A stretch of DNA of 32,000 nt from Candidatus Saccharimonadota bacterium (GCF_008189405.1 NZ_CP043316.1:300001-332000); one strand, 5' to 3'. Positions 7,669 through 26,761 are shown, counted from the first letter of the stretch. Notes: a model not told the origin generated them from the letters alone. Made by a program: numbers and translations.

Positions 7669-8263
7669 TACCTTTTTCTGTTAATTCATGATTGAAAAGC
7701 TCTCTAATGATCTTAGGAGATATGGTTGAAATATGTGCACCAGCCACTGCTGATTTTTGTGCATGCTCCACATTACGTATTGATGCAGCAATAATTTTTG
7801 TTTTAATATTATTCATATCATAAATTTTGCGTATATCTTGTATGATTTCAAATGGGTTATCTCCTCTATCTTCTAGCCTTCCAACAAAAACAGACACATA
7901 TTTTGCTCCTATATTACCAGCTAAGATTGCCTGATTTACGCTGAATACTAAAGTAACATTAACATCTAGCCCTTTTTTGATAAATTGACTTGCATATCCA
8001 AAACAATCTATGCATGGAGGTATCTTTAGAATTAACTTATCTTTATGCTCAAATACTTTTGAAATCTGACTAGCAAACATTATAGGATTTGTTGTTTTTG
8101 GTTGATAGCTTATTTTATACCCTGTATTTTTATATAGTTCTAAAGCGTGAGACATATTATCATTTGTTAATAATTTAGGGTTTGTAGTTATACCAGATAT
8201 TAAACCTGAATCAATTAGAGAATATATCTCTTGTGAATCAGCAGAATCTATAAAAATCATCAT
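7649..8263 (-). CDS. tal: Short-form transaldolase / fructose-6-phosphate aldolase family protein
   Basis: MMIFIDSADSQEI....GLISGITTNPKLL matches M.fF.DtA...ei......g...GvTTNPsl. LKIPPC and VNVTLVFS (cf. N.TLiFs) are also present. The ~205-aa length is typical of the Tal type 3B/FSA class. Confidence 0.85.
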   Translation of the reverse strand: MMIFIDSADSQEIYSLIDSGLISGITTNPKLLTNDNMSHALELYKNTGYKISYQPKTTNPIMFASQISKVFEHKDKLILKIPPCIDCFGYASQFIKKGLDVNVTLVFSVNQAILAGNIGAKYVSVFVGRLEDRGDNPFEIIQDIRKIYDMNNIKTKIIAASIRNVEHAQKSAVAGAHISTISPKIIRELFNHELTEKGIADFAK

Positions 8264-8412
8264 ACTTATATTATGTACTTAGAATTTAATATTGCAAGAA
8301 AAATTTAACTTTCAATTATTTTTTCACTGATGCATATAATAGCTTATGTATATAAATCCATATAAAATTAGAAAGGCTAGGAAATACAAAGAATGCCATT
8401 TATAATCTTGTA

Positions 8413-8880
8413 GTGAGTGTTATTATAACAAATATTATTATAGGGTCAGATCATAGAGGATTTGAGTTAAAAGAATATATTATAAAAAATAAAAACAAGG
8501 TTATACAAAATGATTTGCATCCGCAAAACAAAGAAATGATTGATATAGGATGTTATGACAATAAAGAAATAGACTTTACTGATATTGTGTTTGATATGAT
8601 TGATAAATGGGCACATGACTCTATTGGAATATTAATTTGTAAAACTGGTATTGGAATGAGTATTTGTGCTAATAGGTTTCCAAATATTAGAGGAGCAATT
8701 TGTAAAAATAGTGATGATATAATATCAGCACGCAGCCACAATAATGCCAATGTATTAATTTTAGGTGCTCAAAATGATAATGATGAGATTATCGAGATGA
8801 TTAATTTGTTTATCGATACAGAATTCAGAAATGATGCTAAATATAGCAGGAGAGTAGATAAAATAAGCCAAATAAAATAA
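8413..8880 (+). CDS. rpiB: Ribose-5-phosphate isomerase B
   Basis: IIIGSDHRGFELKEYI, GILICKTGIGMSICANRFPNIRGAIC (catalytic Cys context CxTG retained) and RSHNNANVLILGA match RpiB/LacAB. The start codon is GTG. A small Asn/Lys-rich insertion follows the first strand. Confidence 0.9.
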   Translation: MSVIITNIIIGSDHRGFELKEYIIKNKNKVIQNDLHPQNKEMIDIGCYDNKEIDFTDIVFDMIDKWAHDSIGILICKTGIGMSICANRFPNIRGAICKNSDDIISARSHNNANVLILGAQNDNDEIIEMINLFIDTEFRNDAKYSRRVDKISQIK

Positions 8881-9062
8881 TAATTTGGGAAATAAAAATT
8901 AATAAGGGAAACAGTTAGTTAGAAAAATTAAATCAAATGTTTAAATTTGTGTATAAATATAATTTATAATTAGCACTATTTATTATAAAAATTATAAAAG
9001 AAGAGTGGAGTATGAAAGCTATAAACACTAGCATAATTCGTTAAAGCTTTAGGTATAAACAT

Positions 9063-9932: not shown

Positions 9933-10182
9933 TATATTACTGTACCATTTGAATCAATAAGTTTATATGGGAAAGGCAAAAGTAAAAATCTATATAAAAA
10001 TTATTTGTTATACAACAAACTGTTTTTACATAATGTGTTTCATATTTTATATTGATAGTTTTATGTATTAATGGTTTTAATATAATAATTTTTTACAATA
10101 AATAAATCACTCATTTTTATAATATAATTAAACTACCTAAAAATAACTTGTTATTAAATTAATTATTTAACACTTAAGATTT

Positions 10183-13100
10183 TCATACAGTCCATAAGCC
10201 AGGATCAACTACTTTTTCATCATATATATGATTTAATAATTGAGCGAAATACTCTAATGTTCCATGTTGATTTAACAATATATCAGTACCATTAGAAGTT
10301 TCAGGGCCATATCCACCTTCGCCAAAACTTCTTTTTTCATTAATAAATTGAAATGCAGCATTTAGTAATGCAGGATTCTGTATATATTGCACAAACTCAG
10401 ATAATGTTGAAACTATCTTATTGCTATTATGTAACAGCTTAGATATCATATGAATTTTGAAATTATCTGTTATATTCAAACCTAATCCCTCTCCATCAGA
10501 TAATGTAGTGAAAATATAAATACTAAAATAATTCATTAGAATTAGCGCTAACTTCTGCTTATATGCATTAAACATTTCATCAGAAATATTCACTCTATTC
10601 ATTTGATCAATTTGCTTTTTAGTATTACATAAAAATAATTCGAAATATTCAAAATATGCATTCATTATATAATCAATGTGACCTATCTTTTTATCCTCAC
10701 TAATTGATGTATTATTCCTAAAAGATCTTTCTAGGGCATCAATACTGTTAATAAGTGCAAATAAGAAATTCTCGTTATTATTTAGTAAATCATTTCCGTT
10801 CATTGCATATTTTAAAAAAGCATTCTGAGTAAGTGGATCATATTGATCATATTTTTTCATTACACTTCTAGAAAATCTAACAATGAATTGTAATAGATTA
10901 ATTTGCTGATCTAATTGTGATGAACTTATTTGTTGAGAAGGGTTTTCATTTTGGATAGAGCTTATATATTGTGTGAATAAAAATGATACTATATTGTTTA
11001 ACATTTCTGATTTAGTTTCATCAATAAGCATATAATCCAACCATCCTAATTTCATACTTAATGAGTTTAAGTCTGTTACAGAGCTAGATATTTCATTCAA
11101 ATCAAAAGTAGAAACAGCAAGATATTTTTTCAAACTATCATCATAACTAACAGCTCCATATTTAATAAATAAATCTACTACTTGTTTATTTAAATCTTGA
11201 GAATTATTAGCATTCACTAAACTATTAAACTTATTTACATATATTTCAACAACTTCTCTTATGTCATTGATTGAATTATTATAATAAAGGGTTATACAAA
11301 TGTTTTTCAGTAAATTATAATCTTTAATAGTTGTATATCCAGCAATATTTGGCTTGTTTTCTGGCAAATTCACATATCTAGCTATAATATTAGTATCTAT
11401 ATCTATATTTCGCGTAATTAATGCCCTTAAATATTGATTTTGATTACTTTCAATGTTTTCATACATTTCAAGTCCAACGACTAACTGTATAGCTAATTCT
11501 GTGATAAATGCTTTTTGAGAAATTGGTGGATTATTTTCTTGGTCATGTAACTTTAAAGCCCTATTAATTAATTCACATACTAATTGTGTTTTATGGTGTG
11601 TAGTTAAATTTTTAATAGAAATTTGATTATTTTGTGTATTAAATGCTTCTAAAATGCTTTCTGAATAGTTATCCCAAATATTTTCAATATATATAAATCC
11701 ATTGTTTACATTATTAATTAGATCGCTACTTATTATAACTGGTGCAATAATCCTAAATAACTGATCTGAGTATATTGGTTGTGATCCATATATTTCTCTT
11801 ATATAACTGAAATAATCATATGCTAACTTCTGATGATTTGCATTGCTCACATAGCTATTTATATGCATAATTGCATCTAATGCATCATTATTTATTTTAT
11901 CTATTTTACAATTTGACAACATTATAATATGCTTAATTATTTTCATTGCATATTCTGGTTCAATATAGTTGGTTCCTAATTTTTTTAAATGCTCTACAGT
12001 ATATGCTGTGAATGTAAAATTGATATTGTTCTTTTTGCTTTCACCTATCGCATAAGCACTTAACGCATCATTTCCATATATCATTCGATCGCGTATATCA
12101 ACAATTAACTCCCTTAACTTTAATGCACCAGTTGGCCTACTCATCTCACCTTTGATCCAACGAACTTCATTAGCTATGCTACCAGATTTATTTTTATTAA
12201 AAGCAGAATCAACATGCCTATCAATTTCTTCTGCTTCTTTTAATATTTTTCCTGCTTTATAGTTAATCGAATTTGCAACTCCCATTAATGCACCATCAGA
12301 TTGAAGGTCCATTTTTATTTGATTAATATTTGCATTAATATCACCATTAGGCTGTAATGCTTGAAGTATCAAGCTCATTTTGCTTCCAATATCACCATCA
12401 ATTTCTAGTATTTTCTTAATACAATCAACTTGATTTGCTAGTGTATCATCTTTTTCTTTATTTAATTGATCTTGTACATATTCTAATATTTCTCTAAAAG
12501 TTTTAATCTGATTTTGGCTTGAGTATGGATCTGGATTCATTTGTGTATCAATATTATTAACTTTTGAACTTATATCTTTAATTGCGATATCAAAAGGCCC
12601 TCCAGCTCTTACCGCTTGTGATATGAAAGTTACCTTCTCATTTATTTTATCTGTTTTTCCACTGACTGTATCTAACTTTGTATTTGTTTGAGCAATTTTA
12701 CCATTTACTACTTTTGCTACAGTATTCGTATCATCTACTTTTATAGATATTGTATTAACTTTTGTCTGTGTGGCATCTGCCTTATTATGCAACTCATTCA
12801 CTCTTTTCAAAGTTTCACTTACAAGCCCTTTAAGTAATTTTGGGTCATTAATATTAGATACCTCACGCAATATTTGATTTAGTATAGCTTGGAAATCAAT
12901 TGTATCACCTCCATTAGGTATGAAAAATGCAACTAAAGCTGCTTTAATATGATCTTGCATAATTTTATCATTATCATTTCCTTCTAAAATCTCTAGCATG
13001 TTTTTCAACATATTTTGACCTTCTATACCATCAGTAAAAAATCCCTTGATTTCTCCACAACACTTTTCTAATGCTGATAATATTTCATCATTCAAAGATT

Positions 13101-13929
13101 TGTTATTTTGAATTTTTGTGAGTATTTCTGCTAAATCACCAAAAATCTCTCCCATTTTATCTACAGATATTTCCCCTATTTTATCTGATAATTCTTTAAT
13201 ACTTAATTTAATAGCTTCATTTTGCTGATTAACATTAGTAACACCTTCTAGAATTTCACGTTTATTTTCTTCTTGGTTATAGTGATTTAAAATACTACTC
13301 ATTGAATTATTTATCGATTCATCTATTTTTGCTTCATGACAAATAAAATCCATAATATCTTTTCTACGATCTTCAGTGCTAAATGCATTTTTCAAACCAC
13401 TATCATCAAGCACTTTATACTGCATAGCTAATGATTTTATAATTTGAAAAAACTTTACTACATCTTGTAAATATGTAAATTCATCATTATTTAAATCACC
13501 ATGAATTGGTTTTTCTATAAGCTGCTGATTTGACACATTAATATTTAAAACATGATGGTTTTCTCCATCTTGTATTGTATTTAAATGTCTGATTGGATCA
13601 ATATCGAATTCATGGATAACTCCTTTAGAGTAATTATATGAAAACACCCTATCTATATCTTTTTCATTTCTAATACATCGTAGTCTATACGCAACAATTC
13701 CTTTTTGTTTTTGCAGATGAGATGATAAACCATCAAAGACAACTCCATTTAAATTTATTAATTTATGGCTATCTAGGCCTACCCACCCTTGCAAACATGG
13801 GGTAGAATTTTCTATTAAATTTGTACAAATTTGAATTTTTTCTAAATCTTCTGCAGAAACTGCACTATTAACCTTTAATATACATATAACCATGAAAGGA
13901 AGTATTTTATTATTACAATGCATTTTCAC
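10183..13929 (-). CDS. Giant exported protein of unknown function (1248 aa on the track). It is a paralog of 19525..22026.
   Basis: There is an N-terminal Sec-type signal (KILPFMVICILKVNSAVSA|ED). The track start at 13929 is GTG. ATG at 13923 sits 5 nt downstream of AAGGAG and is the more likely start. The protein shares C-x9-C-L-x2-W, FDG, VAYRL.C.RN, VFSY.Y.K, HHV and KFF.I.KS motifs with the 833-aa protein. I recognised no known family. Confidence 0.8.
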   Translation of the reverse strand: MKMHCNNKILPFMVICILKVNSAVSAEDLEKIQICTNLIENSTPCLQGWVGLDSHKLINLNGVVFDGLSSHLQKQKGIVAYRLRCIRNEKDIDRVFSYNYSKGVIHEFDIDPIRHLNTIQDGENHHVLNINVSNQQLIEKPIHGDLNNDEFTYLQDVVKFFQIIKSLAMQYKVLDDSGLKNAFSTEDRRKDIMDFICHEAKIDESINNSMSSILNHYNQEENKREILEGVTNVNQQNEAIKLSIKELSDKIGEISVDKMGEIFGDLAEILTKIQNNKSLNDEILSALEKCCGEIKGFFTDGIEGQNMLKNMLEILEGNDNDKIMQDHIKAALVAFFIPNGGDTIDFQAILNQILREVSNINDPKLLKGLVSETLKRVNELHNKADATQTKVNTISIKVDDTNTVAKVVNGKIAQTNTKLDTVSGKTDKINEKVTFISQAVRAGGPFDIAIKDISSKVNNIDTQMNPDPYSSQNQIKTFREILEYVQDQLNKEKDDTLANQVDCIKKILEIDGDIGSKMSLILQALQPNGDINANINQIKMDLQSDGALMGVANSINYKAGKILKEAEEIDRHVDSAFNKNKSGSIANEVRWIKGEMSRPTGALKLRELIVDIRDRMIYGNDALSAYAIGESKKNNINFTFTAYTVEHLKKLGTNYIEPEYAMKIIKHIIMLSNCKIDKINNDALDAIMHINSYVSNANHQKLAYDYFSYIREIYGSQPIYSDQLFRIIAPVIISSDLINNVNNGFIYIENIWDNYSESILEAFNTQNNQISIKNLTTHHKTQLVCELINRALKLHDQENNPPISQKAFITELAIQLVVGLEMYENIESNQNQYLRALITRNIDIDTNIIARYVNLPENKPNIAGYTTIKDYNLLKNICITLYYNNSINDIREVVEIYVNKFNSLVNANNSQDLNKQVVDLFIKYGAVSYDDSLKKYLAVSTFDLNEISSSVTDLNSLSMKLGWLDYMLIDETKSEMLNNIVSFLFTQYISSIQNENPSQQISSSQLDQQINLLQFIVRFSRSVMKKYDQYDPLTQNAFLKYAMNGNDLLNNNENFLFALINSIDALERSFRNNTSISEDKKIGHIDYIMNAYFEYFELFLCNTKKQIDQMNRVNISDEMFNAYKQKLALILMNYFSIYIFTTLSDGEGLGLNITDNFKIHMISKLLHNSNKIVSTLSEFVQYIQNPALLNAAFQFINEKRSFGEGGYGPETSNGTDILLNQHGTLEYFAQLLNHIYDEKVVDPGLWTV

Positions 13930-14129
13930 TCCTTATTTTTTACACAAAAATTAATATATAACTCACTGTATATAAATTCATATAAAAACTATTATAATTT
14001 TAAATAAAATTACTTAAATTTTGATTATAATTTACTTATAAATATACTAGAAAACAAACATAATAGTTTATTAATAGTTAATAGTTTTAGGAATAAAGAT
14101 TATATATTATATTTTCAAGTTACAAACAA

Positions 14130-15464
14130 TTGTCAAAACTGAAAAATGTATATATTATTGATCAAATGGATGGGTTACTATTTGATCAAGTCATTAAAAA
14201 TGCTAAAGAATTTGCTGATATAGAGCAAGCATTTGAATATTGTACGGATTTTTATAATAAGCAAACAAACTTACTGACTGAAAGTACGAACGAGGATCCT
14301 GATACTCAAATACAAGTGCATTACCCATATATCGGATTAATTATCAAAGATGGTGATCATTCACATTATTATGGGAATACAATCACACACCCAGTTATGC
14401 TAAAAGAAGCATACTTAAATCAAATTAAGAAAATCATCAAGCAAAATACAGAATTTAAAATCTTAATTGGAGAATCGTATTATCCTATGTCATTAGCTTT
14501 TGTATGTGAAGATTTATTTAATAGCTTAAAAATAGAAAAAACTATTAGCATGCCATGTATCGCTAGAATCAGAAAAGGGATGCAAGAAATAGAGCATGGT
14601 AAAGATATTAATAGAATTGGGTTTTTTCATGCTGAGCATATTGATTATTGCTTAAATAGGCTACACCACTACTGCGGCTCACATGCCAAACATTTTCAAA
14701 ATAATATTATAGTTACAAATTATAAGATGTATATAGATTTTTTTATAGAAGATGGTAAGAAATGGGTTGATGAAGGAATATATGATTGTATTATTGGGCC
14801 AGATATAGAGTATTCAAAATCACAGAATCACTTTGCTGATAACATATCTCTACCACAAATGCCTGCTTATCATTTAAAGAAAGCTAATGGAGATGGAATT
14901 ACTATTATTAATGTTGGTGTAGGCCCTAGTAATTCAAAAAATATTACAGATCATTTGGCTGTGTTGCCCTCAAAGTCATGGCTTATGCTTGGTCATTGTG
15001 CTGGATTAAAGAACACACAAAAGCTTGGTGATTATGTAATAGCTCAAAATTATGCAAGATATGATAATGTGCTGGATAAATATGTTTCAAATAAAATACC
15101 AATACCAAGCTCAACAGCAATAACTAAACAATTAGAAAAAAATGTTAAGAAATTTAAATTTAATGGAGAGCAAGTTTATCAAGGCACAGTAATAACAACT
15201 GCTGATAGGAATTGGGAATTAGATTGTGATATGGTTAATGAGTTTATAGACTCTAAAGCAATTGCAATTGATATGGAATCTGGAACTATCGCAACAAACG
15301 CTTTTAGGTTTTCTGTATCATGTGCTGCATTTTTATGTATTTCTGATATGCCATTACATGGTAAATTAAAACTTAGAGGAATGGCGAAGAATTTCTATCA
15401 AACAAAAGTAAGGCATCATTTTAATATAGGAATGAATGCAATTCGTGATTTATACAATGATTAA
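14130..15464 (+). CDS. amn: AMP nucleosidase
   Basis: The C-terminal PNP/UDP-type catalytic domain matches E. coli Amn closely: GVGPSNSKNITDHLAVL....WLMLGHCAGL, GDYV.A..Y.R.D.VLD, IPIPS, GTV.TT.DRNWEL, AIDMESGTIA, FLCISD.PLHG..KL. The track start is TTG at 14130, with an alternative ATG at 14166. Confidence 0.9.
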   Translation: MSKLKNVYIIDQMDGLLFDQVIKNAKEFADIEQAFEYCTDFYNKQTNLLTESTNEDPDTQIQVHYPYIGLIIKDGDHSHYYGNTITHPVMLKEAYLNQIKKIIKQNTEFKILIGESYYPMSLAFVCEDLFNSLKIEKTISMPCIARIRKGMQEIEHGKDINRIGFFHAEHIDYCLNRLHHYCGSHAKHFQNNIIVTNYKMYIDFFIEDGKKWVDEGIYDCIIGPDIEYSKSQNHFADNISLPQMPAYHLKKANGDGITIINVGVGPSNSKNITDHLAVLPSKSWLMLGHCAGLKNTQKLGDYVIAQNYARYDNVLDKYVSNKIPIPSSTAITKQLEKNVKKFKFNGEQVYQGTVITTADRNWELDCDMVNEFIDSKAIAIDMESGTIATNAFRFSVSCAAFLCISDMPLHGKLKLRGMAKNFYQTKVRHHFNIGMNAIRDLYND

Positions 15465-15609
15465 TCATGCATATAGAAATCATAATTAAAAACTTATAAA
15501 TTAATATAATATATTCAAAGAGTTTGACTAAATTACTAGATTTTTGTTTGAAGTCGCACTATAGTATTGTTAAAAAAAAACTAATAATTTACGATAGAGT
15601 GATATTTAT

Positions 15610-16299
15610 ATGAACGATAAGCATGATTATTACAGTCAAAATATTCATAATCCAAATAGAGTAGAAATCTATCCATCTATTTTTGCATTCCAAACTTTGA
15701 ATATTGGTAATGAGATCAAAAAATTTGACCAAATCACAAGTGGATTACATATAGACATTATTGATGGTAAATATGCAAATAATTTTGGATTTCCAATTTA
15801 TATGATAAAAATGATTCAACAGTATACAAGCAAACCTATTCACATACATGCTATGGCATTTATTGATACTTATATTGGAGAAATAATTGCATGTCGCCCT
15901 CAATTAGTTTTTTTTCACCTTGACTCAACTAAAAATCCTGATCAAATCATTGAAGCTTTACATAATCATAATATTCAAATTGGAATTGCAATTTCTAATT
16001 TTGGAGAAATAGAAAAATACAATAAGATATTACAACAAAATATAATAGATAGAAAAAGAATTAATAATTTACTATTCATGACAGTAATACCTGGCAAATG
16101 TGGTCAAAAATTTATAGATAATAAAACAGAAGAGATACAGCAACTTAGAACAGCATTTCCCCAAGCAAATATTATACTTGATGGAGGAATTAATCCTAAT
16201 ATACTTAAATTGAAGAATATTAATCAAAATATTAACGGAGCTGTGATCGGATCAGCTTTATATAAACACAACATTACAGAATTTTCAAACATATTGTAG
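15610..16299 (+). CDS. rpe: Ribulose-phosphate 3-epimerase
   Basis: IYPSIFAF, LHIDIIDGKYANNFGF (cf. hvDvMDG.FVPN.tfG), MTVIPGKCGQKFI (cf. MsVnPGfgGQ.Fi), LDGGIN and VIGSALY are all present. Confidence 0.85.
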   Translation: MNDKHDYYSQNIHNPNRVEIYPSIFAFQTLNIGNEIKKFDQITSGLHIDIIDGKYANNFGFPIYMIKMIQQYTSKPIHIHAMAFIDTYIGEIIACRPQLVFFHLDSTKNPDQIIEALHNHNIQIGIAISNFGEIEKYNKILQQNIIDRKRINNLLFMTVIPGKCGQKFIDNKTEEIQQLRTAFPQANIILDGGINPNILKLKNINQNINGAVIGSALYKHNITEFSNIL

Positions 16300-16507
16300 A
16301 ATTTTTAAACATCATATTAATCACACTTTATACGCTTATTTGCCTACTACTAATTTTCAGAGTTTACCTACCTAACTTTAGAAATATTTTTAATAAATAA
16401 CTTTAACAGTTTTGAAAATATGCTTTCAATTATAATTATTTTTATATTTTATTTATAGTATTCTATTCGTATTTTCTGTATATTTTTTTCTATATATATA
16501 ATATAAT

Positions 16508-18025
16508 TTGCCTATGTTACCACGTTCTTGGCCAATGCAAAATGCAAAAAAAGTAGTTGATAGAAATTCTAATGACATTATTTTAAAAACTGGATATGGC
16601 CCATCTGGATTGCCACATTTAGGTACAATTGCAGAAATCATCAGAACAAGAATGATACAAAAATCACTTGAATTTCAAGGTAAAGAAGCTAAAATTATAG
16701 TATTTGTAGATAATATGGATGGATTTAGAAAAGTTCCCTTAAACTTACCAAAACAAGATTATTTATCTCAATTTTTAGGACTACCACTATTTAAAGTACC
16801 AGATGTATTTGGATGTTGTGAAAATTTTGCTGATCATAATATTAATGAGTTAAACAAGCTGATTGCACAATTTGATTTAACAAATCATGTTGAAGTTATC
16901 AAATCAAGTGATATGTATTTATCTGGCAAATTCAATAATGCATTGCTAAATGTTTTGCGTAATCATGAAAAAATTCTCAAAATCATGTTACCTACTTTAG
17001 GAGAAGAAAGGCAAAAAACATATAGCCCATTTCTACCAATTTCTGAGAAAAGCGGTAAAGTTCTAGAAGTAAAAATTGAAGAATATAAAGTTGATGAAGG
17101 TAAAATTACATTTTATGATGAGGGAGAATTAGTAGAAGCTGAAGTTATAAATGGAAAGTGTAAGTTACAATGGAAAGTTGATTGGGGAATGCAATGGCAT
17201 GCACTTGGCGTTGACTATGAAATGTATGGAAAAGATTTAATAGATTCATTTTCTGTTTCCAAACCAATTTGCAAAACATTAGGGTCAAAAGCTCCAGTAA
17301 ATATGGTTTATGAATTATTCTTAGATGGAGATAATAAAAAGATTTCTAAATCAAAAGGAAATGGTGTGAGCTTAGATGATTGGATGAATTTCACTCCAAT
17401 TGCTAGTATGAAGCATTTTCTATTCTTACATCCTGAAAGAGCAAAAAAACTTGATATACGAGACTTACATCGTTATGTTGATGCATACCTAAAAGATTTA
17501 CAAAGATATCATAATCAAATCAAAGAAAATGATGAAACTAGATATGAAAATCCAATTTTCTATACACATGAAAATGATTTACCTCCTCCTACAGAATTAT
17601 CTTATGCAATTTTATTAAACTTACAAAAAGGTTTACGTAGTCCTAATTATGAAACATTTCGTAATTTTATTATTAAGCAACATGGGGAGCTTAATTCTAC
17701 TGAAGAAAAATTGGTTGAATGTATATATAAATTTGCAGAGCACCATAAAACTGAATCTCACCCTGCCCCATCATGGATGATCAAATATTTGCAGAAATTT
17801 ATTGATAATATGGATGGTTTCTCTACAGGATTAGAAATGCAAACTAATTTATATGCTTTAGGGAATGAAGCAGTAGAAAATAAAGATATTATAGATTTAA
17901 AATCATGGTTTCAAACAATATATTTAGTTCTTTTTGGTGAAGAAACTGGACCAAGATTAGGTCCATTTTTTGAATTATATGGCAAAGAAGAGAGTATGAA
18001 ATTAATCAGTGCTAAGATTAAGTAA
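16508..18025 (+). CDS. lysK: Lysyl-tRNA synthetase, class I
   Basis: The class I LysRS layout is visible: SWP..NAKKV, TGYGPSGLPHLGTIAEIIRT (HIGH-equivalent) and KISKSKGNG (KMSKS). The track start is TTG at 16508, with ATG at 16514 likelier. Confidence 0.9.
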   Translation: MPMLPRSWPMQNAKKVVDRNSNDIILKTGYGPSGLPHLGTIAEIIRTRMIQKSLEFQGKEAKIIVFVDNMDGFRKVPLNLPKQDYLSQFLGLPLFKVPDVFGCCENFADHNINELNKLIAQFDLTNHVEVIKSSDMYLSGKFNNALLNVLRNHEKILKIMLPTLGEERQKTYSPFLPISEKSGKVLEVKIEEYKVDEGKITFYDEGELVEAEVINGKCKLQWKVDWGMQWHALGVDYEMYGKDLIDSFSVSKPICKTLGSKAPVNMVYELFLDGDNKKISKSKGNGVSLDDWMNFTPIASMKHFLFLHPERAKKLDIRDLHRYVDAYLKDLQRYHNQIKENDETRYENPIFYTHENDLPPPTELSYAILLNLQKGLRSPNYETFRNFIIKQHGELNSTEEKLVECIYKFAEHHKTESHPAPSWMIKYLQKFIDNMDGFSTGLEMQTNLYALGNEAVENKDIIDLKSWFQTIYLVLFGEETGPRLGPFFELYGKEESMKLISAKIK

Positions 18026-18091
18026 TTATATGCTCAAACTAAATGAATATGATAATTTATTAGATAAGCATAACAACGAACAAGTAGAATA

Positions 18092-19510
18092 ATGATGAAT
18101 AATAAAAACACATTCTCACTTTATATACACTGGCCATTTTGTAGAAAAAAATGTTCATATTGCGATTTGAATAGCCATGTACGCGATTCTATTGATGAAA
18201 ATGTTTGGATCGATGGGCTAATCAAAGAAATGCACTATTGGCATAAATTCACTGCTCACTATAAAATGGAAACTATCTTTTTTGGTGGTGGAACTCCATC
18301 ATTAATACAGCCTAAAAATATAGAAAAAATTATTAAAACTGCAAAAACATTATGGAAACCTTATACTAATAGCAAAAATAATCACTTATATATAGGCAGT
18401 AATAATTTATATAAGGGTAGAGAAATAGATAATTTATATAAAAATGATGAAATAGAAATTACATTAGAGACTAACCCATCATCATTGGAAGCAAATTCAT
18501 TGCGAGAATTCAAAAATGCAGGTATAAATCGTATTTCTTTTGGTGTCCAATCATTGGATGATGACATTTTACATTTATTGAATCGTACGCATAATGCAGA
18601 AGAGGCTTTGAAGTTCATTCAATCAAGCCTGGACATATTCAATAATGTTTCTGTAGATATTATGTATGGACTACCTACTCATACATTACAAACCTTACAA
18701 AGCACACTTGATAATTTATTAAAGCTTAATATTCATCATATATCTATTTACGAACTAACTCTTCAGAAAAACACATTACTTAACCACCAAATTGAAAATA
18801 AAGAATTGTTTTTGCCTTGCGATGAGCAAATTGCTAATGAATATGAATTGATTTTGAAAAGTTGTAAAAAACATGAGTATAATAGATATGAAATTTCAAG
18901 TTTCTCTTTGCCTGGCTATGAAAGTAGGCATAATCAAAATTATTGGCATAGTAAGCAGTTCATAGGCATTGGACCTGGAGCACATGGACGAATTTTTATA
19001 GAAAATGAAAATGATTTATATAGTATTATGCAAACTTCTACTAATATAAATGAAAGTACCAGTGTAAATAAAAATGTCTCTTCTAACCAATCTGCAGATT
19101 TTACAATTATTCCGCAAAGTGAATTAAATAAATCCAAAAATTCATATAATTCATATAGCAATGAAATTACATCTAAAAAATCTCATTACTACTCAATAGA
19201 AAATTCAAAGATACCTGAAAAATGGCTTGAAAAAGTACAAAACAAACACAATGGGTTAAAAGTATTTGAAAATATTGATATAGATACGCAAATCCAAGAG
19301 TTTATCATGATGGGTTTAAGAGTCACTGATGGATTTAGTATTTTAGATTTTGAATCTAGATTTCAAGTAAAATTTAGTACTATTACCTCCCAAGATAAAA
19401 TTAATAAATTACTTGATCATAATTATATTGAAATTAACCAACATAATATAAAACTTACATATTCAGGCATTATACGCCATGGCGCTATTTGTAAATATTT
19501 GATCTTTTAG
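18092..19510 (+). CDS. hemW: Radical SAM heme chaperone HemW / oxygen-independent coproporphyrinogen oxidase-like protein, with two low-complexity insertions
   Basis: LYIHWPFCRKKCSYCDL (CxxxCxxC radical SAM cluster), FFGGGTPS, LETNP, NRISFGVQS, D.MYGLP, IS.YEL, YEIS.F, NYW and GIGPGAHG are present. At 472 aa it is about 90 aa longer than typical HemW. Confidence 0.85.
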   Translation: MMNNKNTFSLYIHWPFCRKKCSYCDLNSHVRDSIDENVWIDGLIKEMHYWHKFTAHYKMETIFFGGGTPSLIQPKNIEKIIKTAKTLWKPYTNSKNNHLYIGSNNLYKGREIDNLYKNDEIEITLETNPSSLEANSLREFKNAGINRISFGVQSLDDDILHLLNRTHNAEEALKFIQSSLDIFNNVSVDIMYGLPTHTLQTLQSTLDNLLKLNIHHISIYELTLQKNTLLNHQIENKELFLPCDEQIANEYELILKSCKKHEYNRYEISSFSLPGYESRHNQNYWHSKQFIGIGPGAHGRIFIENENDLYSIMQTSTNINESTSVNKNVSSNQSADFTIIPQSELNKSKNSYNSYSNEITSKKSHYYSIENSKIPEKWLEKVQNKHNGLKVFENIDIDTQIQEFIMMGLRVTDGFSILDFESRFQVKFSTITSQDKINKLLDHNYIEINQHNIKLTYSGIIRHGAICKYLIF

Positions 19511-19524
19511 ATAAAACAATCAAA

Positions 19525-22026
19525 TTACATAGGGATTTCTTCAGGATCTCCACCTCCATTTCCTATCTCTAATATTGATAAAGCATGTTCAGATCCTGGG
19601 AAAGGGCTCATTATCAAGTATATGTGCATAAATCGTAAGAATTGAGACTGTGTACTTATTAACAATCTTAATACATTTTCATTTTGTGCTATGTATGACA
19701 TATATTTTCTAACCATACATCCAGCCTCATATTTTAAGCTGTTATTATTAATATTAATATTTTCATAATCCATAATTGTATTTGTAACAAATGTTAATAA
19801 ATGTAAATATGCTGGATGATTATTTTCTCCAAATTCTGCAATCTGTTTTTTCATATAGCAGAATAGCTCGCTGTCATACTGCTTCAAAAACAATGCTGTA
19901 TTCATATTTGGTTCGATTGCAATTTTACTGAATAATTTTGTTAATACTTTATCGTATATATTATCCAAATTATTTGCCTCTAGATCTGAAGTGTCTTTAT
20001 TTCTCATTATTGCGACTGCTAAGTCAATTGCTTGTTTTTTAGTTAATGCTTTTGCAATATTAATATCATTATCATTACTTGTAAAGCTTTGAGAAAACAT
20101 ATGATCTATTTTTAATACTGTATCAGATTGTTTGTTTCCACTACTATCATATACAACATCATCATTTGAATTAGAGAATCCATATTTGAAGATTTGAGAC
20201 AAAATTTCTCTTCGTTTTTGTCTATTGTCATCATTATGAGCTATATCTTCAAAAACAACTGAATTATTCTTCAATGCTCTTAATTTAAATACACTATCTA
20301 TTCCATTAGCATATCCACTTAGTGTATTAATCACAATATTGTAATCATTTTTATTTGCATTGCCATCTTCATAAGGTGTTATATTCATATCTTCATTATA
20401 TAAACCTTTAAATAATTGCATAATATCTGGAGCAAAAGCAATTGCAAACTTTGTGACTTCAGATCTGATTTCTTGTTTACCTATCTCATTAGATTCTTCA
20501 CTCATAAATATATCAGCAACATGTTTTATAGATAATTGTAAATCCCCACCATTAATATCTTTATAATTAGATATAAGCCCTTTATCTAAGTGAGCATTAA
20601 CAACTCCAGAAGCCATAGGGAAGATATATTTATTCTGCATTACAAATGGGTTGCCATCACTAAATTCAGCACCATTAAGCAAAGCATATATTTCTGATAT
20701 ATTATTAATATCTGAACTTAAAATAGAGTATCTTCTAGTTATATGATGTATTGTATCGTTAATCAGCTCTAGTTTATCTGGATCAGCAAGGTACATATTA
20801 GCAGACATTATGCTTTTTAAATCATCATGCTTCAGCATATTTTCTTTAGTAAATGATTCAAGAGTTGGGAACCATAATGGCATCATGTATCTTAGATAAT
20901 CAGATGCTAAATTATCAAATTGTAGATTAATTCGATCATTACGGTAACTTAGCACTCTGCGTTCAGGTTGTTGAAATTGATTAAATTGACCAAGCATAAA
21001 TTCAGAGTATAATGTATCAAAATTATCATCATTAAGAATTGATGCTTCATCATCAGAAATATTATTGATAATCATCGTAATCGCATCTATCACATTTTGA
21101 GATGGATTTGTAAAACCACATGAAGATTTCTCTATAATAGTTTTTACTAACCACATTGCATGTACTGAAGATTCAATTGGAACAGGGTTATTTCTTTTAT
21201 CAAAAATATAATGATTCACGAATTGTGTAGCTGAGATACTTCCATCTTGTAATTCATTCAACCATTTAACTTGATACTCACCTACAATACCTAAGATTTC
21301 TGGATTTCTTTCTGGGCGTATAAGTATATTAAGATTTGCACAATTATGTTGCAATTGAGCAAAAGATATAATACTGATTATAGAATCATTCATAGAATGC
21401 CTTGAATTCACTTCCAAACAAATACGCTTCATTGTATCTACATTATGTGTATCATCAAGTGAACTTTTTAATTTATTATCTTTTAGTAATGCAATTTGTA
21501 ATTTATAAGACTTAAGAATATGGAAAAATTTATCAGCATCTTTGTAGTAAGATCTTTGATCATCAGATAACTTATTTTTATCAGATAGTAAATCTCTTAC
21601 AAGATGATCAGTTGTTAGATCAACTTTTGCAACATGATGTATATCATCATCTTGCACATCTGCCAAATCTGTATTGACATTAAAATTGTTACCAAAGTGA
21701 TGTAATTCATTTTTTGTATAATCATAGCTAAAAACTTCATCAAATGCTTTCCCATTCCTATTACACTTTAATCTGTAAGCAACATATCCAGTAGATCTAG
21801 ATTCCAATGAATTAATTCCATCAAATTCAATTTCATCTTTGATTAAAAAGTTTTTAATTGCATCGCTATCCATACCATGTAACCAAGATCTCAAGCAATT
21901 TGATTCATTATTTATTAAACCAGGGCAAGTACTTAGCTTACTATAATCAGTAGGCTGTTCCTTTCTTGCAAATGATGTTTGCAACATGCAAATAGTTAGC
22001 AATGGTAATAATTTTCTATTATTCAT
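19525..22026 (-). CDS. Large exported protein of unknown function (833 aa). It is a paralog of 10183..13929.
   Basis: There is a Sec-type signal (RKLLPLLTICMLQTSFA|RKE). GGAGG lies 4 nt upstream of the ATG. N-terminal residues ~30-215 are collinear with the 1248-aa protein. Further shared patches are HAMWLVKTIIEKSSC..NVIDAI versus YAMKIIKHIIMLSNC..DALDAI, and SELFCYMKKQI versus FELFLCNTKKQI. Confidence 0.8.
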   Translation of the reverse strand: MNNRKLLPLLTICMLQTSFARKEQPTDYSKLSTCPGLINNESNCLRSWLHGMDSDAIKNFLIKDEIEFDGINSLESRSTGYVAYRLKCNRNGKAFDEVFSYDYTKNELHHFGNNFNVNTDLADVQDDDIHHVAKVDLTTDHLVRDLLSDKNKLSDDQRSYYKDADKFFHILKSYKLQIALLKDNKLKSSLDDTHNVDTMKRICLEVNSRHSMNDSIISIISFAQLQHNCANLNILIRPERNPEILGIVGEYQVKWLNELQDGSISATQFVNHYIFDKRNNPVPIESSVHAMWLVKTIIEKSSCGFTNPSQNVIDAITMIINNISDDEASILNDDNFDTLYSEFMLGQFNQFQQPERRVLSYRNDRINLQFDNLASDYLRYMMPLWFPTLESFTKENMLKHDDLKSIMSANMYLADPDKLELINDTIHHITRRYSILSSDINNISEIYALLNGAEFSDGNPFVMQNKYIFPMASGVVNAHLDKGLISNYKDINGGDLQLSIKHVADIFMSEESNEIGKQEIRSEVTKFAIAFAPDIMQLFKGLYNEDMNITPYEDGNANKNDYNIVINTLSGYANGIDSVFKLRALKNNSVVFEDIAHNDDNRQKRREILSQIFKYGFSNSNDDVVYDSSGNKQSDTVLKIDHMFSQSFTSNDNDINIAKALTKKQAIDLAVAIMRNKDTSDLEANNLDNIYDKVLTKLFSKIAIEPNMNTALFLKQYDSELFCYMKKQIAEFGENNHPAYLHLLTFVTNTIMDYENININNNSLKYEAGCMVRKYMSYIAQNENVLRLLISTQSQFLRFMHIYLIMSPFPGSEHALSILEIGNGGGDPEEIPM

Positions 22027-22185
22027 TATTCCTCCGTATATTTTTATAAATTAAAACAGTTTATTATTAACATTATGTAAATTTAGCATATATTTTGCTG
22101 TATTTTATTATTAATTGCTTATATTACTAAAAATAAAACCTACCTAAATATTGCTATTAGATACCTTACAATATAACATTATTTT

Positions 22186-23364
22186 ATGTTTTGCTCTGGC
22201 CCAACAAAAAAATATGCAGAATTTTCATCCTATAATTTATTAGAAGGTTTAGGTAGATCTCATAGATCTGATTTATGGGAAAATAAAATTCAAGATATAT
22301 ATTCTTTAATTAAAAAATCATTACAAATCCCAGATAATTACCAAATAGGGTTTATCAATGGATCAGCAACAGCAGCAATAGATTCATTGTTTTGGAATTT
22401 TTTAGGTTCAAAACCATGTCATGTGCTAGAGACTGGAGTATTTAGTAAAAGATGGGGAAATGAGATATTTAATGTACTAAAAATCCCTGGAAAATCAATT
22501 CAGCCCATCAACTTAATCAAGCAAACTAACTCATATCAAAATAATTTTGATAATCTAAATAATACTAATTATGGTCCTAATGTTCTAAATAACAGATTCA
22601 ATTATAATTATGATTTCGTATTTACTATGGTAGAAACCACAAATGGATCTAGGTGGTTTGATAAAAATGTTTTAAATAAAATTCAAGGATTAAAGTTCTG
22701 TGATGCAACCTCTGCAGTCTTTTGTGAGAATATAGATTGGAATTTATTAGACTATACTGCTTTTTCATTTCAAAAAGCATTAGGTGCAGAAGCTGGAATA
22801 GGATGTGTTGTATTAAGCCCTAAAGCTATCGATCATATGAATAATCATAATCCTAAATTCCCAACCCCACGATTTCTACAAATCAATCATAGTATTTTCC
22901 AAGGAAAGCTTAATAATACCCCATCACTTATTTCATTAAATGATATTGCGATTAACTTAAGCATTTTTTTAAATAAAGGTGGGTTACCAAATGCAATCAA
23001 GCAATGCAAGTTGAATCAAAGTCAAATTATGGATATTTTATCTCCAACATTACAGTGTATAAACTGCAATCACATCAATACAAATCATAATGCAAATGCA
23101 ATTTTATGCATGGAAATGAGTCAATGGGGAAATAATCTCATTAATCATAATATATATAGTGATAAAATAAGTAAAAATATAATAGATGAAGAAAAATGGC
23201 GAATCATACATAAAGTTGCCAAACAATCTGAGCAATTCGGAATATTTGATATAGCAGGACATCCTGAAGATACTCCATGTTGGAGATTTTGGATTGGGCC
23301 CACTATAGATAAAATTCAATCATATATTAACCAATTTATAGATATTATAAGGGATGCAATTTAG
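22186..23364 (+). CDS. serC: Phosphoserine aminotransferase (alphaproteobacterial long-form SerC)
   Basis: FCSGPTKK, GRSHRS, DNYQIGF.NGSAT.AIDS, FCDATSAVF..NIDW..LDYTAFSFQKALGAEAG (PLP-Lys context SxQK), LSPKAI, NTPS and WRFWIGPTI are collinear with the alpha-type SerC pattern (FSSGP ... GRSHR ... ICDATSA ... SWQKvLGGE ... RIWCGATV). Confidence 0.8.
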   Translation: MFCSGPTKKYAEFSSYNLLEGLGRSHRSDLWENKIQDIYSLIKKSLQIPDNYQIGFINGSATAAIDSLFWNFLGSKPCHVLETGVFSKRWGNEIFNVLKIPGKSIQPINLIKQTNSYQNNFDNLNNTNYGPNVLNNRFNYNYDFVFTMVETTNGSRWFDKNVLNKIQGLKFCDATSAVFCENIDWNLLDYTAFSFQKALGAEAGIGCVVLSPKAIDHMNNHNPKFPTPRFLQINHSIFQGKLNNTPSLISLNDIAINLSIFLNKGGLPNAIKQCKLNQSQIMDILSPTLQCINCNHINTNHNANAILCMEMSQWGNNLINHNIYSDKISKNIIDEEKWRIIHKVAKQSEQFGIFDIAGHPEDTPCWRFWIGPTIDKIQSYINQFIDIIRDAI

Positions 23365-24244
23365 TAAAAAGCTAATTATATTATTATCACATTTTCCATT
23401 TTTCAAAAAAAATACAGAAGATCGAAATATTGCACGCGTAATAGCTGATGTGGTTCATGATAAAAATTGTTATAAATCAAAAAGTAATCTCAATAAATGT
23501 ATCTTAGATTTAATCACAACTAAAAAATATGAAATAAACAGATTAGCACAATCTGCAAAAACAGATACGGTAAAAAGATTTATATATAAATATAATGCAA
23601 ATAAAAGAAACCTTGAGAAATCTAATATGATTGGAGAGGTTTACCCTAAGCATCGTAAATATGATAAAGCTATTTTATTATATGATGAAGATCAAAATAT
23701 CGAAGTATTTAGAGCTAAATTAATATTTTTAGAAACATTACACTCAAAAGGATATTCTTGGGACAAAATTGATATTATCGTTAGTTCGAAAATGAAAAAT
23801 TATAGCTTTGAAACCCTTTCAATCTTAAATAATAAATCAAAAAAACTTCCAATTAATACAAACATCAAAATAGATAAATCATCATATAAACCATCCAATG
23901 ATCTTGAAATTGTAAAATACATATTGGAACAAATGAAAATTAGCCCTGCACTATCTAAGCAGATAAACTTTTATGTTAAACAAGAATCAATTAATCAATT
24001 AATGGAAAATTGGATTGAAGATAATTATAATACCAAAGCAATTGATATTCAAATTAACCCTACAATTCCATACTATAAATCTAAATGGAATACATATTCA
24101 AATTATGATGCTAATAAAATTGAAGTTATAGGAGGTGAAGGTGTAACAGATAGCGAATCTCCAATAAGGCTTTATAAGAATGCTGAACTTATATTAAGCA
24201 ATATAGGAATGTACTACAGTAACTTATATAAATACCACTTCTAA
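23354..24244 (+). CDS. Hypothetical protein, 296 aa, Lys/Asn-rich, with no signal peptide recognised
   Basis: It is a long intact ORF on the coding strand that overlaps the serC stop by 11 nt. I could identify no motif. Confidence 0.5.
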   Translation: MQFSKKLIILLSHFPFFKKNTEDRNIARVIADVVHDKNCYKSKSNLNKCILDLITTKKYEINRLAQSAKTDTVKRFIYKYNANKRNLEKSNMIGEVYPKHRKYDKAILLYDEDQNIEVFRAKLIFLETLHSKGYSWDKIDIIVSSKMKNYSFETLSILNNKSKKLPINTNIKIDKSSYKPSNDLEIVKYILEQMKISPALSKQINFYVKQESINQLMENWIEDNYNTKAIDIQINPTIPYYKSKWNTYSNYDANKIEVIGGEGVTDSESPIRLYKNAELILSNIGMYYSNLYKYHF

Positions 24245-24930: not shown

Positions 24931-25515
24931 ATGTCTATTAACTTACCTTTAGGGTTCCAATTGATAATCAATAATAATATTATAGAATATGCAAATGCAA
25001 ATAAGCTAGAAAATAATACTGTGTTTATTTCTGAAGATGCATTAAAAAACCATAATAATTTAGAGGTATATTTTGCATTTAATCGATTTTCTAAATCAGA
25101 ATTGCTATTTATATCTATTATTTCCATACATAAATTGTTATCTAATATAAATATAAAGTGTGAATTAATCTGGCCAAATAAATTAGTTATCCAAAATAAA
25201 ATTATTGCACAATGTAATACTCAAAGTGTGAATAGTATGCAAATAGTTAAAATAAAAATAAAATCTATAATAAGTAATAAGCATATCTTAATTAAACTAT
25301 GCGAACAAATGAACTTTAAATTGCACCAAATTAGCATGATTGGGAAGCATTATATTATAAACCAAATCCAAGCACTAATCAGGCAAAAAAAGAAAGAATA
25401 TGAAAATATACCTTTTCTAATACAAAATATAGATAAAAATGGCGATTTACAAATAGTTTCTTCAGATTATACAAAGCATAAGCTAAAGTTAGATGATTTT
25501 ATATGTAATACTTAA
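24931..25515 (+). CDS. Highly divergent biotin-protein ligase (BirA/BPL)-like protein, possibly catalytically degenerate
   Basis: CELIWPNKLVIQNKIIAQ (25171..) resembles the BPL hallmark (l/i)KWPND(l/i)....kK(l/i)(a/s)GIL. The upstream IIEYAN....NTVFISED resembles idSTN....g.vv.Ae.Q. The expected GRGRxGRxW loop position reads ALKNHNNLEVYF, and no GIGxN block is evident. Confidence 0.45.
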   Translation: MSINLPLGFQLIINNNIIEYANANKLENNTVFISEDALKNHNNLEVYFAFNRFSKSELLFISIISIHKLLSNINIKCELIWPNKLVIQNKIIAQCNTQSVNSMQIVKIKIKSIISNKHILIKLCEQMNFKLHQISMIGKHYIINQIQALIRQKKKEYENIPFLIQNIDKNGDLQIVSSDYTKHKLKLDDFICNT

Positions 25516-26081
25516 GTATTATTACATAAATATAAATAAGCAGGTGGGAAATTATTCAATATATATCCACATTTATTGGCATTTAACCCATATTTTTTTG
25601 ATTTCTTTTTAAAAAATGGACTATATGACATTTGTAAATAATCTACACCAGAATCTACAAATCTAGCAAATAATTTCATGATTTGTGTTGATTTTTCAGC
25701 TCCTAATGATATTAATGGTAATGTAGAAACAAAGCTATTAATTGTATCTATACCTAATTCCACCAATATATCATCAATATGTAAAATATCTCTGTTTAGA
25801 ACCTTAGCCTTTGGGAATTTTTTAGCTAAAACGCTACAAAACTCATTATCTATTTCAAAACAAATAATTTTTTCTTCTGGCACTCCATGTTTGATTAATG
25901 ATTCTGTAACTGTTCCTGTTCCTGATCCCACTTCAATTATAAAGCCATCTTTATTTAGATTTATATTTTTAGCAAAACACTTCCCAACAGAAGATGTGCT
26001 AGGAATTATAGACCCCATTCTAAATGGATTTGCAAACCATTTTTTTAGAAATATTCTCTTACTCACAAGATATTTTACCAA
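25512..26081 (-). CDS. Class I SAM-dependent methyltransferase, PmtA-like (COG3963 phospholipid N-methyltransferase type)
   Basis: FLKKWFANPFRMGSIIPSTSSVGK, FIIEVGSGTGTVTE (GxGxG SAM motif I), ICFEID.EF...L...FP and the C-terminal NNFPPAYLYLC follow the Rhodobacter-type PmtA layout (F...P...G...PSS ... E.G.GTG ... N.PPA.vy.c). The start codon is TTG. Confidence 0.6.
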   Translation of the reverse strand: MVKYLVSKRIFLKKWFANPFRMGSIIPSTSSVGKCFAKNINLNKDGFIIEVGSGTGTVTESLIKHGVPEEKIICFEIDNEFCSVLAKKFPKAKVLNRDILHIDDILVELGIDTINSFVSTLPLISLGAEKSTQIMKLFARFVDSGVDYLQMSYSPFFKKKSKKYGLNANKCGYILNNFPPAYLYLCNNT

Positions 26082-26179: not shown

Positions 26180-26761
26180 TTATGAATCATTATTAATTTC
26201 ATAGCAATTTAAATAAGTGATTGGCACCCCCCAAATAGGTTTACAAAATATCTTTTTCATACCATAATTTGAAGATTTAATACGAACAAATGGGGTGTAG
26301 GAAACATGCAGCATTTTCCCATGATTTAAATTCATTATTTTAACACATGAGTTTATTATTGCATTTGTAATAGATTTATTTATAGATAAAAAAGGAATTG
26401 ATGAAACAATGATCTCTACTTTATTTAATAAATCATGATCAATATAGCGTTCTAATTCAGCAGCACTTTGATTAATTATAGATAATTCTGGAAATTTACT
26501 ATGTAAAATATTACATAATTCTTTATCAATTTCTATACAAATAATTCTTTTATTAATTTTTTCATTTTGGTATAAAAATTTTGTCAGAGCACCAGATCCG
26601 CTCCCAATTTCTAGTATATATCCGTTATCTGAAATCTCTGGCATATTATCTATTAATTTTTTCCCTACTTTTGGTGACAGAGGTAAAAATGTCCCCATCC
26701 TACTAGGATTTTTTATCCATCTCTTTGCAAATTTTATATTCTCTTTACTAAAAATAGACAT
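26180..26761 (-). CDS. Class I SAM-dependent methyltransferase, second tandem PmtA-like paralog
   Basis: FAKRWIKNPSRMGTFLPLSPKVGK, YILEIGSGSGALTK, ICIEIDKEL..IL...FPE and SSIPFLS are collinear with the neighbouring methyltransferase. The C-terminal PPA motif is replaced (WGVPITYLNCY). Confidence 0.6.
   Translation of the reverse strand: MSIFSKENIKFAKRWIKNPSRMGTFLPLSPKVGKKLIDNMPEISDNGYILEIGSGSGALTKFLYQNEKINKRIICIEIDKELCNILHSKFPELSIINQSAAELERYIDHDLLNKVEIIVSSIPFLSINKSITNAIINSCVKIMNLNHGKMLHVSYTPFVRIKSSNYGMKKIFCKPIWGVPITYLNCYEINNDS

Follow-up and report, generated by a model that had tools for sequence, protein, structure and literature searches.

The surface cell antigens (Sca autotransporters) of the Rickettsiales and comparable exported families of obligate intracellular alphaproteobacteria are large proteins with a Sec leader, encoded as lineage-specific, fast-diverging paralogs amid the housekeeping genes of reduced genomes. 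Polymorphic toxins and variable surface proteins are encoded at loci in which a constant N-terminal part, homogenised by gene conversion, is joined to a variable C-terminal part. In Holospora obtusa, an 89-kDa and a 63-kDa protein are periplasmic and are moved or secreted outside the bacterium during infection (PMC11909080); Holospora belongs to the same bacterial family as Cytomitobacter, and these two proteins are the closest functional parallel to a route in which Sec export precedes release to the host. We analysed a 32,000-nucleotide stretch (NZ_CP043316.1:300001-332000, hereafter the window) of the 622,378-bp genome of Candidatus Cytomitobacter primus, which carries two long open reading frames (ORFs), ORF A (1246 amino acids, aa) and ORF B (833 aa). 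Sequence comparisons establish ORF A and ORF B as genuine, divergent paralogs within a protein family that lacks annotation. The best explanation for the whole of the data, to which we give an even chance, is that members of this family would be modular exported proteins acting at the cell surface or in the interaction with the host.

The N-terminal regions of ORF A and ORF B were 35% identical over 219 aa (BLASTP, E=8e-34). Without the leaders, the two N-domains gave a local alignment score of 302, compared with 38 +/- 6.5 for 300 shuffled sequences (z=40.7). A preliminary description of this DNA had claimed such a shared domain and had proposed shuffled controls as a check; all the motifs that it listed for this domain were present. 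It had also called the family undescribed: the C. primus entry in NCBI that matches ORF A at 100% identity is labelled 'hypothetical protein', ORF B is annotated in the same way, and Pfam, NCBIfam and PDB-sequence profile searches gave no match even at E<=10, except for the weak coiled-coil matches described below. The word 'giant' used for these proteins was generous for lengths of 833 and 1246 aa.

Relatives were searched with HMMER, using a two-sequence N-domain profile against 1.84 billion cluster representatives (exhaustive search). Six proteins were found in total, all from C. primus, C. indipagum (three members, of 1192, 795 and 969 aa) or the circular 621,866-bp genome ENA ERZ25333236 ctg610, to which one match belonged. 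Reading the ctg610 contig revealed a second copy of 848 aa, and use of hemW as a handle led to a 619,361-bp sister genome, ENA ERZ25333217 ctg1396, encoding two more divergent members (779 and 778 aa; E ~1e-34 against the family hidden Markov model, HMM). After synteny walking, the wider search suggested by the preliminary description had thus added seven members in three other genomes, for a total of nine proteins in four Cytomitobacter-like genomes. ORF A and ORF B lie, as first described, on the minus strand on either side of amn (AMP nucleosidase), rpe (ribulose-phosphate 3-epimerase), lysK (class-I lysine-tRNA ligase) and hemW, and the members of every family-bearing genome occupy the same amn-rpe / hemW / serC neighbourhood, with a copy number of 2 to 3 across the loci examined.

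In a tree of N-domains, ORF A grouped with the 1192-aa C. indipagum protein (A-type), ORF B with the 795- and 969-aa proteins (B-type), and the ctg610 and ctg1396 pairs each formed a clade of their own; hence the A/B duplication is older than the separation of C. primus and C. indipagum. No member was found near hemW in Ca. Nesciobacter abundans or in the 558-kb alphaproteobacterial metagenome-assembled genome (MAG) CP060235, for which the hemW neighbourhoods were searched. No further copy or decayed relic was detected in the window (family HMM against the six-frame translation) or in the fetched loci. As far as current databases show, sequence searches confine the family to the Cytomitobacter clade of diplonemid endosymbionts. 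Other searches returned less: a word-index homology search with full-length ORF A returned only ORF A itself, not even its paralog or orthologue, and one with the two-sequence N-domain alignment returned nothing, likely because the words of N/K/I-rich sequences also occur in thousands of AT-rich proteins that are unrelated to them. Scanning GTDB representative genomes and JGI metagenomes for N-domain patterns gave no locus, C. primus being seemingly missing from the genome set, and no paper with the accessions or locus tags of ORF A and ORF B turned up in the literature searched. In C. indipagum, leucine-rich-repeat proteins are encoded beside the A-type member and amn-rpe (locus 14613-15077 and 21021-22208); no such gene was seen among the scanned ORFs of the C. 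primus window.

The preliminary description had noted two further patches of similarity between the paralogs, which fared differently. The internal patch was weak in pairwise comparison (BLASTP E=0.17; z=5.4 in a pre-selected window) and was upheld by the family: it is kept in seven aligned members, with the Ala of its YA motif invariant (consensus YA-x3-[IVM]K ... C ... D-x-[LI]D-x-I), it is also visible in the two ctg1396 members, and it falls within the 353 columns over which A-type and B-type profiles deprived of the N-domain align (hhalign probability 89.5%, E=2e-6). The C-terminal patch had no pairwise significance between ORF A and ORF B (z=2.2), and its proposed 'ELF.C' register was off by one residue in ORF B. 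What stands is its Cys, part of a Cys-[Y/N/H/F] motif present in 9/9 members ~90-150 aa from the C-terminus, with Lys two residues on in most. Profiles of the last 220 aa aligned at this motif in 4/6 clade pairs (P=0.005 to 5e-8); those of ORF A versus ctg610 (0.43) and ORF B versus ctg610 (0.068) were no better than reversed-sequence controls (0.09-0.87). With the N-domain cut off, A-type orthologues aligned end to end (E ~1e-61 to 1e-65), and the E values among B-type members were 1e-13 to 1e-22. Judged from these alignments, the homology of ORF A and ORF B spans most of their length. Gly-rich acidic tails were observed near the C-termini of some members, not all, as in ORF A (SFGEGGYGPETSNG, window 10183-10350), ORF B (EIGNGGGDPEEIPM, window 19525-19600) and the 848-aa ctg610 protein (QGEGGEWNVEGPGEGNN, locus 6297-6400).

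In the family alignment, ORF A owes most of its extra length over ORF B to an insertion of ~400 aa that is found in A-type members. The peak hydrophobic period was 3.50, as in a coiled coil, in aa 361-480 of ORF A (the periodicity of its insertion being located at aa ~360-480) and across the whole insert of the C. indipagum A-type protein. The insertion matched the Pfam models Laminin_II (PF06009), DUF7310 (PF23991) and DUF7517 (PF24361) weakly, the best value (E=3.9e-6) being that of the C. indipagum member. These matches reflect composition and not homology, since all of them lie in the insertion that B-type members lack and those of ORF A to coiled-coil models (E=0.0078 and 0.25) are sub-threshold. 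Within this insertion, the orthologue of ORF A in C. indipagum has 2.5 tandem copies of a 126-nt (42-aa) unit, which are 79% identical (locus 17178-17490); no DNA-level tandem repeat was found in ORF A of the window and no protein-level one in ORF A or ORF B. Each member thus comprises a leader, a ~190-aa alpha/beta N-domain, the optional ~400-aa coiled-coil spacer of A-type proteins, the internal patch, a 450-600-aa all-helical region that diverges very fast and, ~100 aa from the C-terminus, the Cys motif. Homology over most of the length, the coiled-coil insertion and the gene conversion described below go beyond the preliminary description.

That description had also called these paralogs fast-diverging in an obligate intracellular bacterium, and their divergence proved far above that of their neighbours. 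Genes adjoining the family were mostly 52-86% identical between C. primus and C. indipagum (40% for one unknown ORF) and 36-79% identical between C. primus and ctg610. Orthologues within the family were 19-30% identical. Family members were 16-28% identical to ORF B over the full length, and 18-38% identical to one another in the N-terminal region when two near-identical within-genome pairs were set aside. By these sequence identities, the family diverges much faster than the neighbouring genes.

The two near-identical pairs have a distinctive structure. The ctg1396 paralogs are in direct orientation, 4.4 kb apart, and share a 1188-bp repeat at 98.7%, made of ~90 bp of upstream DNA and 365 codons (99.2% aa identity); past a sharp boundary the two proteins are unrelated. 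The ctg610 paralogs are inverted around the serC-like gene and have 1105 bp in common at 97% identity (99% over 1001 bp of it), before dropping to ~40% aa identity. The shared repeats include ~50-90 bp upstream and the first 316-365 codons, i.e. the promoter region, leader, N-domain and a short linker, plus the internal patch in ctg1396. Such a ~1.1-kb 5' module, 97-99% identical and followed by abrupt divergence, points to recent partial gene conversion that keeps a constant N-module alike in ctg610 and ctg1396 and lets the C-terminal module vary. No DNA repeat was found between ORF A and ORF B in the C. primus window, where the N-domains are down to 35% identity. Two properties of these repeats were recorded besides. 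The 1.1-kb inverted repeat of ctg610 (locus 7795-8896 and 9948-11049) flanks a 1051-bp serC-like gene, so that homologous recombination could invert this segment; repeats of this kind are unusual for a ~0.62-Mb endosymbiont genome. Recombination between the direct repeats of ctg1396 (locus 12691-13877 and 17137-18324) would delete serC and a conserved 297-aa ORF.

The promoter-proximal ~1.1 kb at 97-99% identity, with a remainder that is unrelated or ~40% identical, resembles constant-N/variable-C loci, from which the family differs by having no silent cassettes, immunity genes, toxin domains or invertase sites, and by the lack of a DNA repeat in the C. primus pair. The same arrangement in some paralogs, and the presence of a second symbiont, N. 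abundans, in the Diplonema japonicum host of C. primus, would suit polymorphic toxins of bacterial competition, in which the N-terminal delivery module is constant and the C-terminal toxin varies. This appears highly improbable: no small immunity-type ORF lies downstream of ORF A or ORF B (era is 250 nt past ORF A and hemW converges on ORF B), no toxin, RHS, contact-dependent inhibition (CDI) or PT-domain match was obtained, and the variable regions are predicted to be 450-600-aa helical arrays, not compact toxin domains.

Very low conservation over most of the length, together with orphan status, might also be taken as a sign of decaying, non-functional remnants or annotation artefacts, a reading to which we give almost no credence. 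The frames are unbroken over 833 and 1246 codons; with stops at 7.9% of codons over the six frames, the probability of finding none is ~1e-30 and ~1e-45, respectively. Strong Shine-Dalgarno sequences are present: GGAGG precedes the ATG of ORF B at 22026, and AAGGAG lies 7 nt upstream of the start of ORF A, for which the ATG at 13923 is likelier than the GTG at 13929. The frame first described for ORF A is correct, and its length is more likely 1246 aa, as in the NCBI protein, than 1248 aa. Intact full-length relatives in four genomes have kept the anchor motifs, and both proteins are recorded on two contigs each, consistent with two C. primus assemblies.

Each of the nine members starts with a basic n-region, (M)N(K/R)K, and has a core of 10-15 hydrophobic residues; small-x-small sites occur at residues ~18-30. 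A hand-coded heuristic was used to score seven members, and the two ctg1396 leaders were read by eye; the best 10-aa windows had a Kyte-Doolittle mean of 2.6-3.1, as in Sec signal peptides cleaved by signal peptidase (SPase) I. The signal peptides first described for ORF A and ORF B are therefore supported as predicted Sec-type leaders. No other hydrophobic segment of transmembrane strength was found in any of the nine members. A lipoprotein signal (SPase II) was rejected: there is no lipobox, the h-region Cys of five members (TIC, VIC, LLC, TTC) has I, L or T at -1, and 4/9 members have no h-region Cys.

Of the four Cys conserved in the N-domain, Cys1 and Cys4 (C34 and C203 in ORF B) are invariant in all nine members, and Cys2 and Cys3 (C44 and C88) are replaced jointly in the C. 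indipagum A-type protein (D, S) and in the ctg1396 pair (Q, T), never singly. Two independent double losses are what a Cys2-Cys3 bond would produce, and Cys1-Cys4 is left as the second pair, which suggests two disulfides. The joint loss fits an extracytoplasmic fold, so that the argument of the preliminary description for a location outside the cytoplasm, from leaders and cysteines, agrees with the sequence pattern; it also argues against Cys2 as a catalytic nucleophile. This bears on the possibility that the N-domain is an enzyme that reaches the host as an effector, for instance a cysteine protease of the papain-like type, or a deubiquitinase, using a Cys-His pair. A Cys does open the first predicted helix in C-L-x-x-W, with a His ~86 residues on in most members, and the top Foldseek matches in PDB, none of them significant, include USP25/28, Legionella RavD and coronavirus PLpro. 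Nevertheless these matches are at noise level (E>=1.6, probability <0.1, TM score 0.1-0.2), the helix-start Cys is replaced in 3/9 members, always along with its putative disulfide partner, the His is shifted by one column in the ctg1396 pair and is not invariant across the nine, and no peptidase was found in PDB or Pfam profile searches even at E<=10. An enzyme of this kind (clan CA) was rejected on the replacement of its Cys, and we consider it very unlikely.

The N-domain of ORF B was modelled with AlphaFold2 from a six-sequence alignment, with a predicted local distance difference test (pLDDT) of 75.2 and a predicted TM score (pTM) of 0.78. In this model, three short helices precede an antiparallel sheet of three strands, and long helices make up the C-terminal part. 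Full-length ORF B gave a mean pLDDT of 55.7 and was predicted to be all helix from residue 143 to the C-terminus. Compared with PDB and BFVD, neither model had a Foldseek match at E<0.001; those of the full-length model were generic HEAT/ARM solenoids (E>=6e-3, TM ~0.15). Neither these searches nor the profile searches, both proposed in the preliminary description, revealed a confident match to a characterised housekeeping family. The family is new as a protein family, in the familiar category of orphan exported paralogs of intracellular bacteria; according to the models, its ~200-aa N-domain, and probably its helical architecture, have no detected sequence or structural neighbour.

Other known types of exported protein were examined and rejected. 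For a type V autotransporter there is no Pfam match and no C-terminal beta-barrel, the model being helical after the N-domain; here lies the difference from the Sca proteins, which the family otherwise resembles. A repeats-in-toxin (RTX) type I substrate is not indicated, as there is no RTX Pfam match or protein tandem repeat in ORF A or ORF B and the leader is N-terminal. RHS/YD or CDI polymorphic toxins were set aside for want of any such Pfam domain and of a small ORF directly downstream, and a pore-forming toxin with a hydrophobic hairpin for want of a conserved hydrophobic segment past the leader. The earlier statement that no autotransporter, RTX, RHS or repeat motif could be recognised is supported, as no domain of the autotransporter, RTX, RHS or repeat-toxin type was detected.

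C. primus is a Gram-negative member of the Holosporaceae and an endosymbiont of the diplonemid D. japonicum; Cytomitobacter lies free in the host cytoplasm and occasionally in mitochondria, with no surrounding host membrane (PMC5845003). Among the candidate host-interaction roles first proposed, which were adhesin, invasin and vacuole or host-membrane effector, the last does not fit this location. In the published genome analysis, 22-50% of genes were hypothetical, many of them 'putative secreted proteins' (doi 10.1101/719211); its supplement lists secABDEFY and ffh as retained in Cytomitobacter, plus gspF, gspD, pilB and pilQ, and type I secretion genes as 'None'. From this gene set, a route to the periplasm exists in Cytomitobacter and a route across the outer membrane is conceivable.

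The principal competing explanation is that these are periplasmic or envelope-resident proteins with a structural, chaperone-like or spacer role, maybe tethered by an uncleaved signal anchor, which never meet the host. We regard it as rather unlikely, although much agrees with it: the Sec-type leader is the sole export signal seen, no outer-membrane barrel, lipobox or known secretion-system signal was found, the secretin system of the genus is reduced, a long coiled coil spanning the periplasm is conceivable for A-type members, and the related Holospora stores large orphan proteins in its periplasm (PMC11909080). However, housekeeping envelope proteins are usually conserved, and this family is among the fastest-diverging of the locus; it has no member near hemW in the co-resident N. 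abundans or in the related MAG, its copy number varies, and paralogs with 99% identical N-modules differ wholly in their C-terminal two-thirds. A host-interface role is favoured because of lineage specificity, rapid divergence, varying paralog number, the conversion pattern and direct exposure to the host cytoplasm.

Several points count against a host-interface role. A Sec leader alone delivers only to the periplasm, and the type II secretion / type IV pilus gene set of the genus is incomplete. The disulfide pairing rests on two co-loss events in nine sequences, and a Dsb system is not mentioned in the genome paper or its supplement (doi 10.1101/719211). Rapid divergence could result from relaxed constraint and not from an arms race. 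Past residue ~530 of the ORF B model the pLDDT is 30-55, and a known fold could hide there. As for the precedent of Holospora, no sequence relationship to its proteins was detected, the exhaustive N-domain profile search having matched only Cytomitobacter-like genomes, and an infectious form whose periplasm is enlarged has not been described for Cytomitobacter.

If the proteins do act at the host interface, they would cross the inner membrane via SecYEG and lose their leader, and the N-domain would fold in the oxidising periplasm with disulfides Cys1-Cys4 and Cys2-Cys3. The constant N-module would serve export, anchoring or recognition, possibly with a handover to the reduced GspD/PilQ secretin system of the genus, and the variable helical C-module would be shown on the cell surface or released to the host cytoplasm, which directly touches the bacterium, where it could bind host (possibly mitochondrial) or other targets. 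Diversification would proceed by duplication, fast C-terminal divergence and partial gene conversion keeping the 5' module alike. In this scheme, export beyond the periplasm, leader cleavage, the disulfides, the host target and the C-module as the working end are what we infer from sequence features. A bolder version, which we think doubtful and of low probability, is that the family represents a new fold class: a disulfide-locked N-module, kept by conversion and read by a stripped-down secretin, would carry interchangeable, hypervariable helical C-modules that bind host structures and could mediate the association with host mitochondria that is typical of the genus, and the occasional entry into them.

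Table 1. Features of ORF A, ORF B and the intervening gene block (window coordinates).
Feature	Position	Strand	Basis
ORF A, 1246 aa, A-type, NCBI hypothetical protein	10183..13923	-	ORF, 100% database match, paralogy to ORF B
ORF A, predicted Sec signal peptide MHCNNKILPFMVICILKVNSAVSA	13852..13923	-	Heuristic; core ILPFMVICIL (Kyte-Doolittle mean 3.09), small-x-small site VSA before E
ORF A, N-domain, aa 25-220, four conserved Cys	13264..13851	-	E=8e-34, z=40.7, family alignment
ORF A, ~420-aa helical/coiled-coil insertion, missing from ORF B	12004..13263	-	Alignment gap, 3.5-residue periodicity, weak coiled-coil matches
ORF A, internal conserved patch YAMKIIKHIIMLSNCKIDKINNDALDAIMHI	11860..11952	-	Pairwise, family and profile alignments
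ORF A, C-terminal Cys motif FELFLCNTKKQI	10609..10644	-	Family alignment, tail profiles
ORF B, 833 aa, B-type, QEK38566.1 / WP_148971687.1	19525..22026	-	ORF
ORF B, predicted Sec signal peptide MNNRKLLPLLTICMLQTSFA	21967..22026	-	Heuristic; n-region +2, core LLPLLTICML, site SFA before R
ORF B, N-domain, aa 21-228, predicted alpha/beta (AlphaFold2)	21343..21966	-	pLDDT 75.2, pTM 0.78; no structural neighbour at E<0.49
ORF B, internal conserved patch HAMWLVKTIIEKSSCGFTNPSQNVIDAITMI	21070..21162	-	Pairwise, family and profile alignments
ORF B, C-terminal Cys motif DSELFCYMKKQI	19840..19875	-	Family alignment, tail profiles
Housekeeping block amn, rpe, class-I lysS (lysK), hemW	14130..19510	+	Context, outside the family

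The window has a G+C content of 21-33% and, besides the genes of Table 1 and era, contains a divergent serC-like gene, mla genes, accA, a xerC/D-type recombinase gene, a transaldolase-family gene, rpiB and dut, among others. The serC-like gene (region 22186-24244, +) scored 207 bits, compared with an NCBIfam cut-off of 477, and has an 11-nt overlap with a 296-aa ORF. This ORF has no family match; it is conserved in C. indipagum (51% identity) and ctg1396, is probably present in the MAG, whose serC-like gene has an ORF of 296 aa next to it, and is absent from ctg610. The hemW gene (18092-19510, +) encodes 472 aa, compared with ~375-400 aa in most homologues. The protein matches its HMM in 2-3 separate stretches, and the best BLAST alignments of many homologues extend over only 62-70% of it. 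A long HemW with a split match suggests a lineage-specific insertion, which is also seen in the sister genomes, where HemW has 411-460 aa. Two adjacent ~190-aa RrnaAD-like methyltransferase paralogs, ~30-35% identical (25512-26081, - and 26180-26761, -), are kept in 4/5 related loci fetched and were not seen in the N. abundans stretch.

Another pair of tandem paralogs, of 480 and 392 aa (26859-28301, - and 28420-29598, -), is unrelated to the main family and has N-terminal hydrophobic leaders. The two proteins share 46% identity in their first ~200 aa (E=2e-46) and are unrelated thereafter, a design of constant N-module and variable C-module as in the main family, and they gave no Pfam, NCBIfam or main-family HMM match. 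The syntenic 522-aa ORF of C. indipagum (locus 291-1859) has only a 43-aa patch in common with them (E=0.001).

Diplonemids are among the most abundant marine heterotrophic protists. Their Holosporaceae symbionts do not provision nutrients, probably take up host ATP, and lie beside mitochondria and sometimes inside them. With ~6.2 kb, the family described here makes up ~1% of the 622-kb genome of C. primus; clade-specific, with predicted export signals and a divergence several-fold above that of its neighbours, it provides concrete candidates for the host interface, and the partial gene conversion is unexpected in such reduced genomes. Were the proteins purely periplasmic, they would be an ordinary orphan family. 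Were the new fold class real, a recombination-driven host-interface system would operate in a 0.6-Mb endosymbiont of a protist. The family bears on the question of how the Holosporaceae symbionts of diplonemids persist in their hosts, and its proteins may serve as antigens for localisation.

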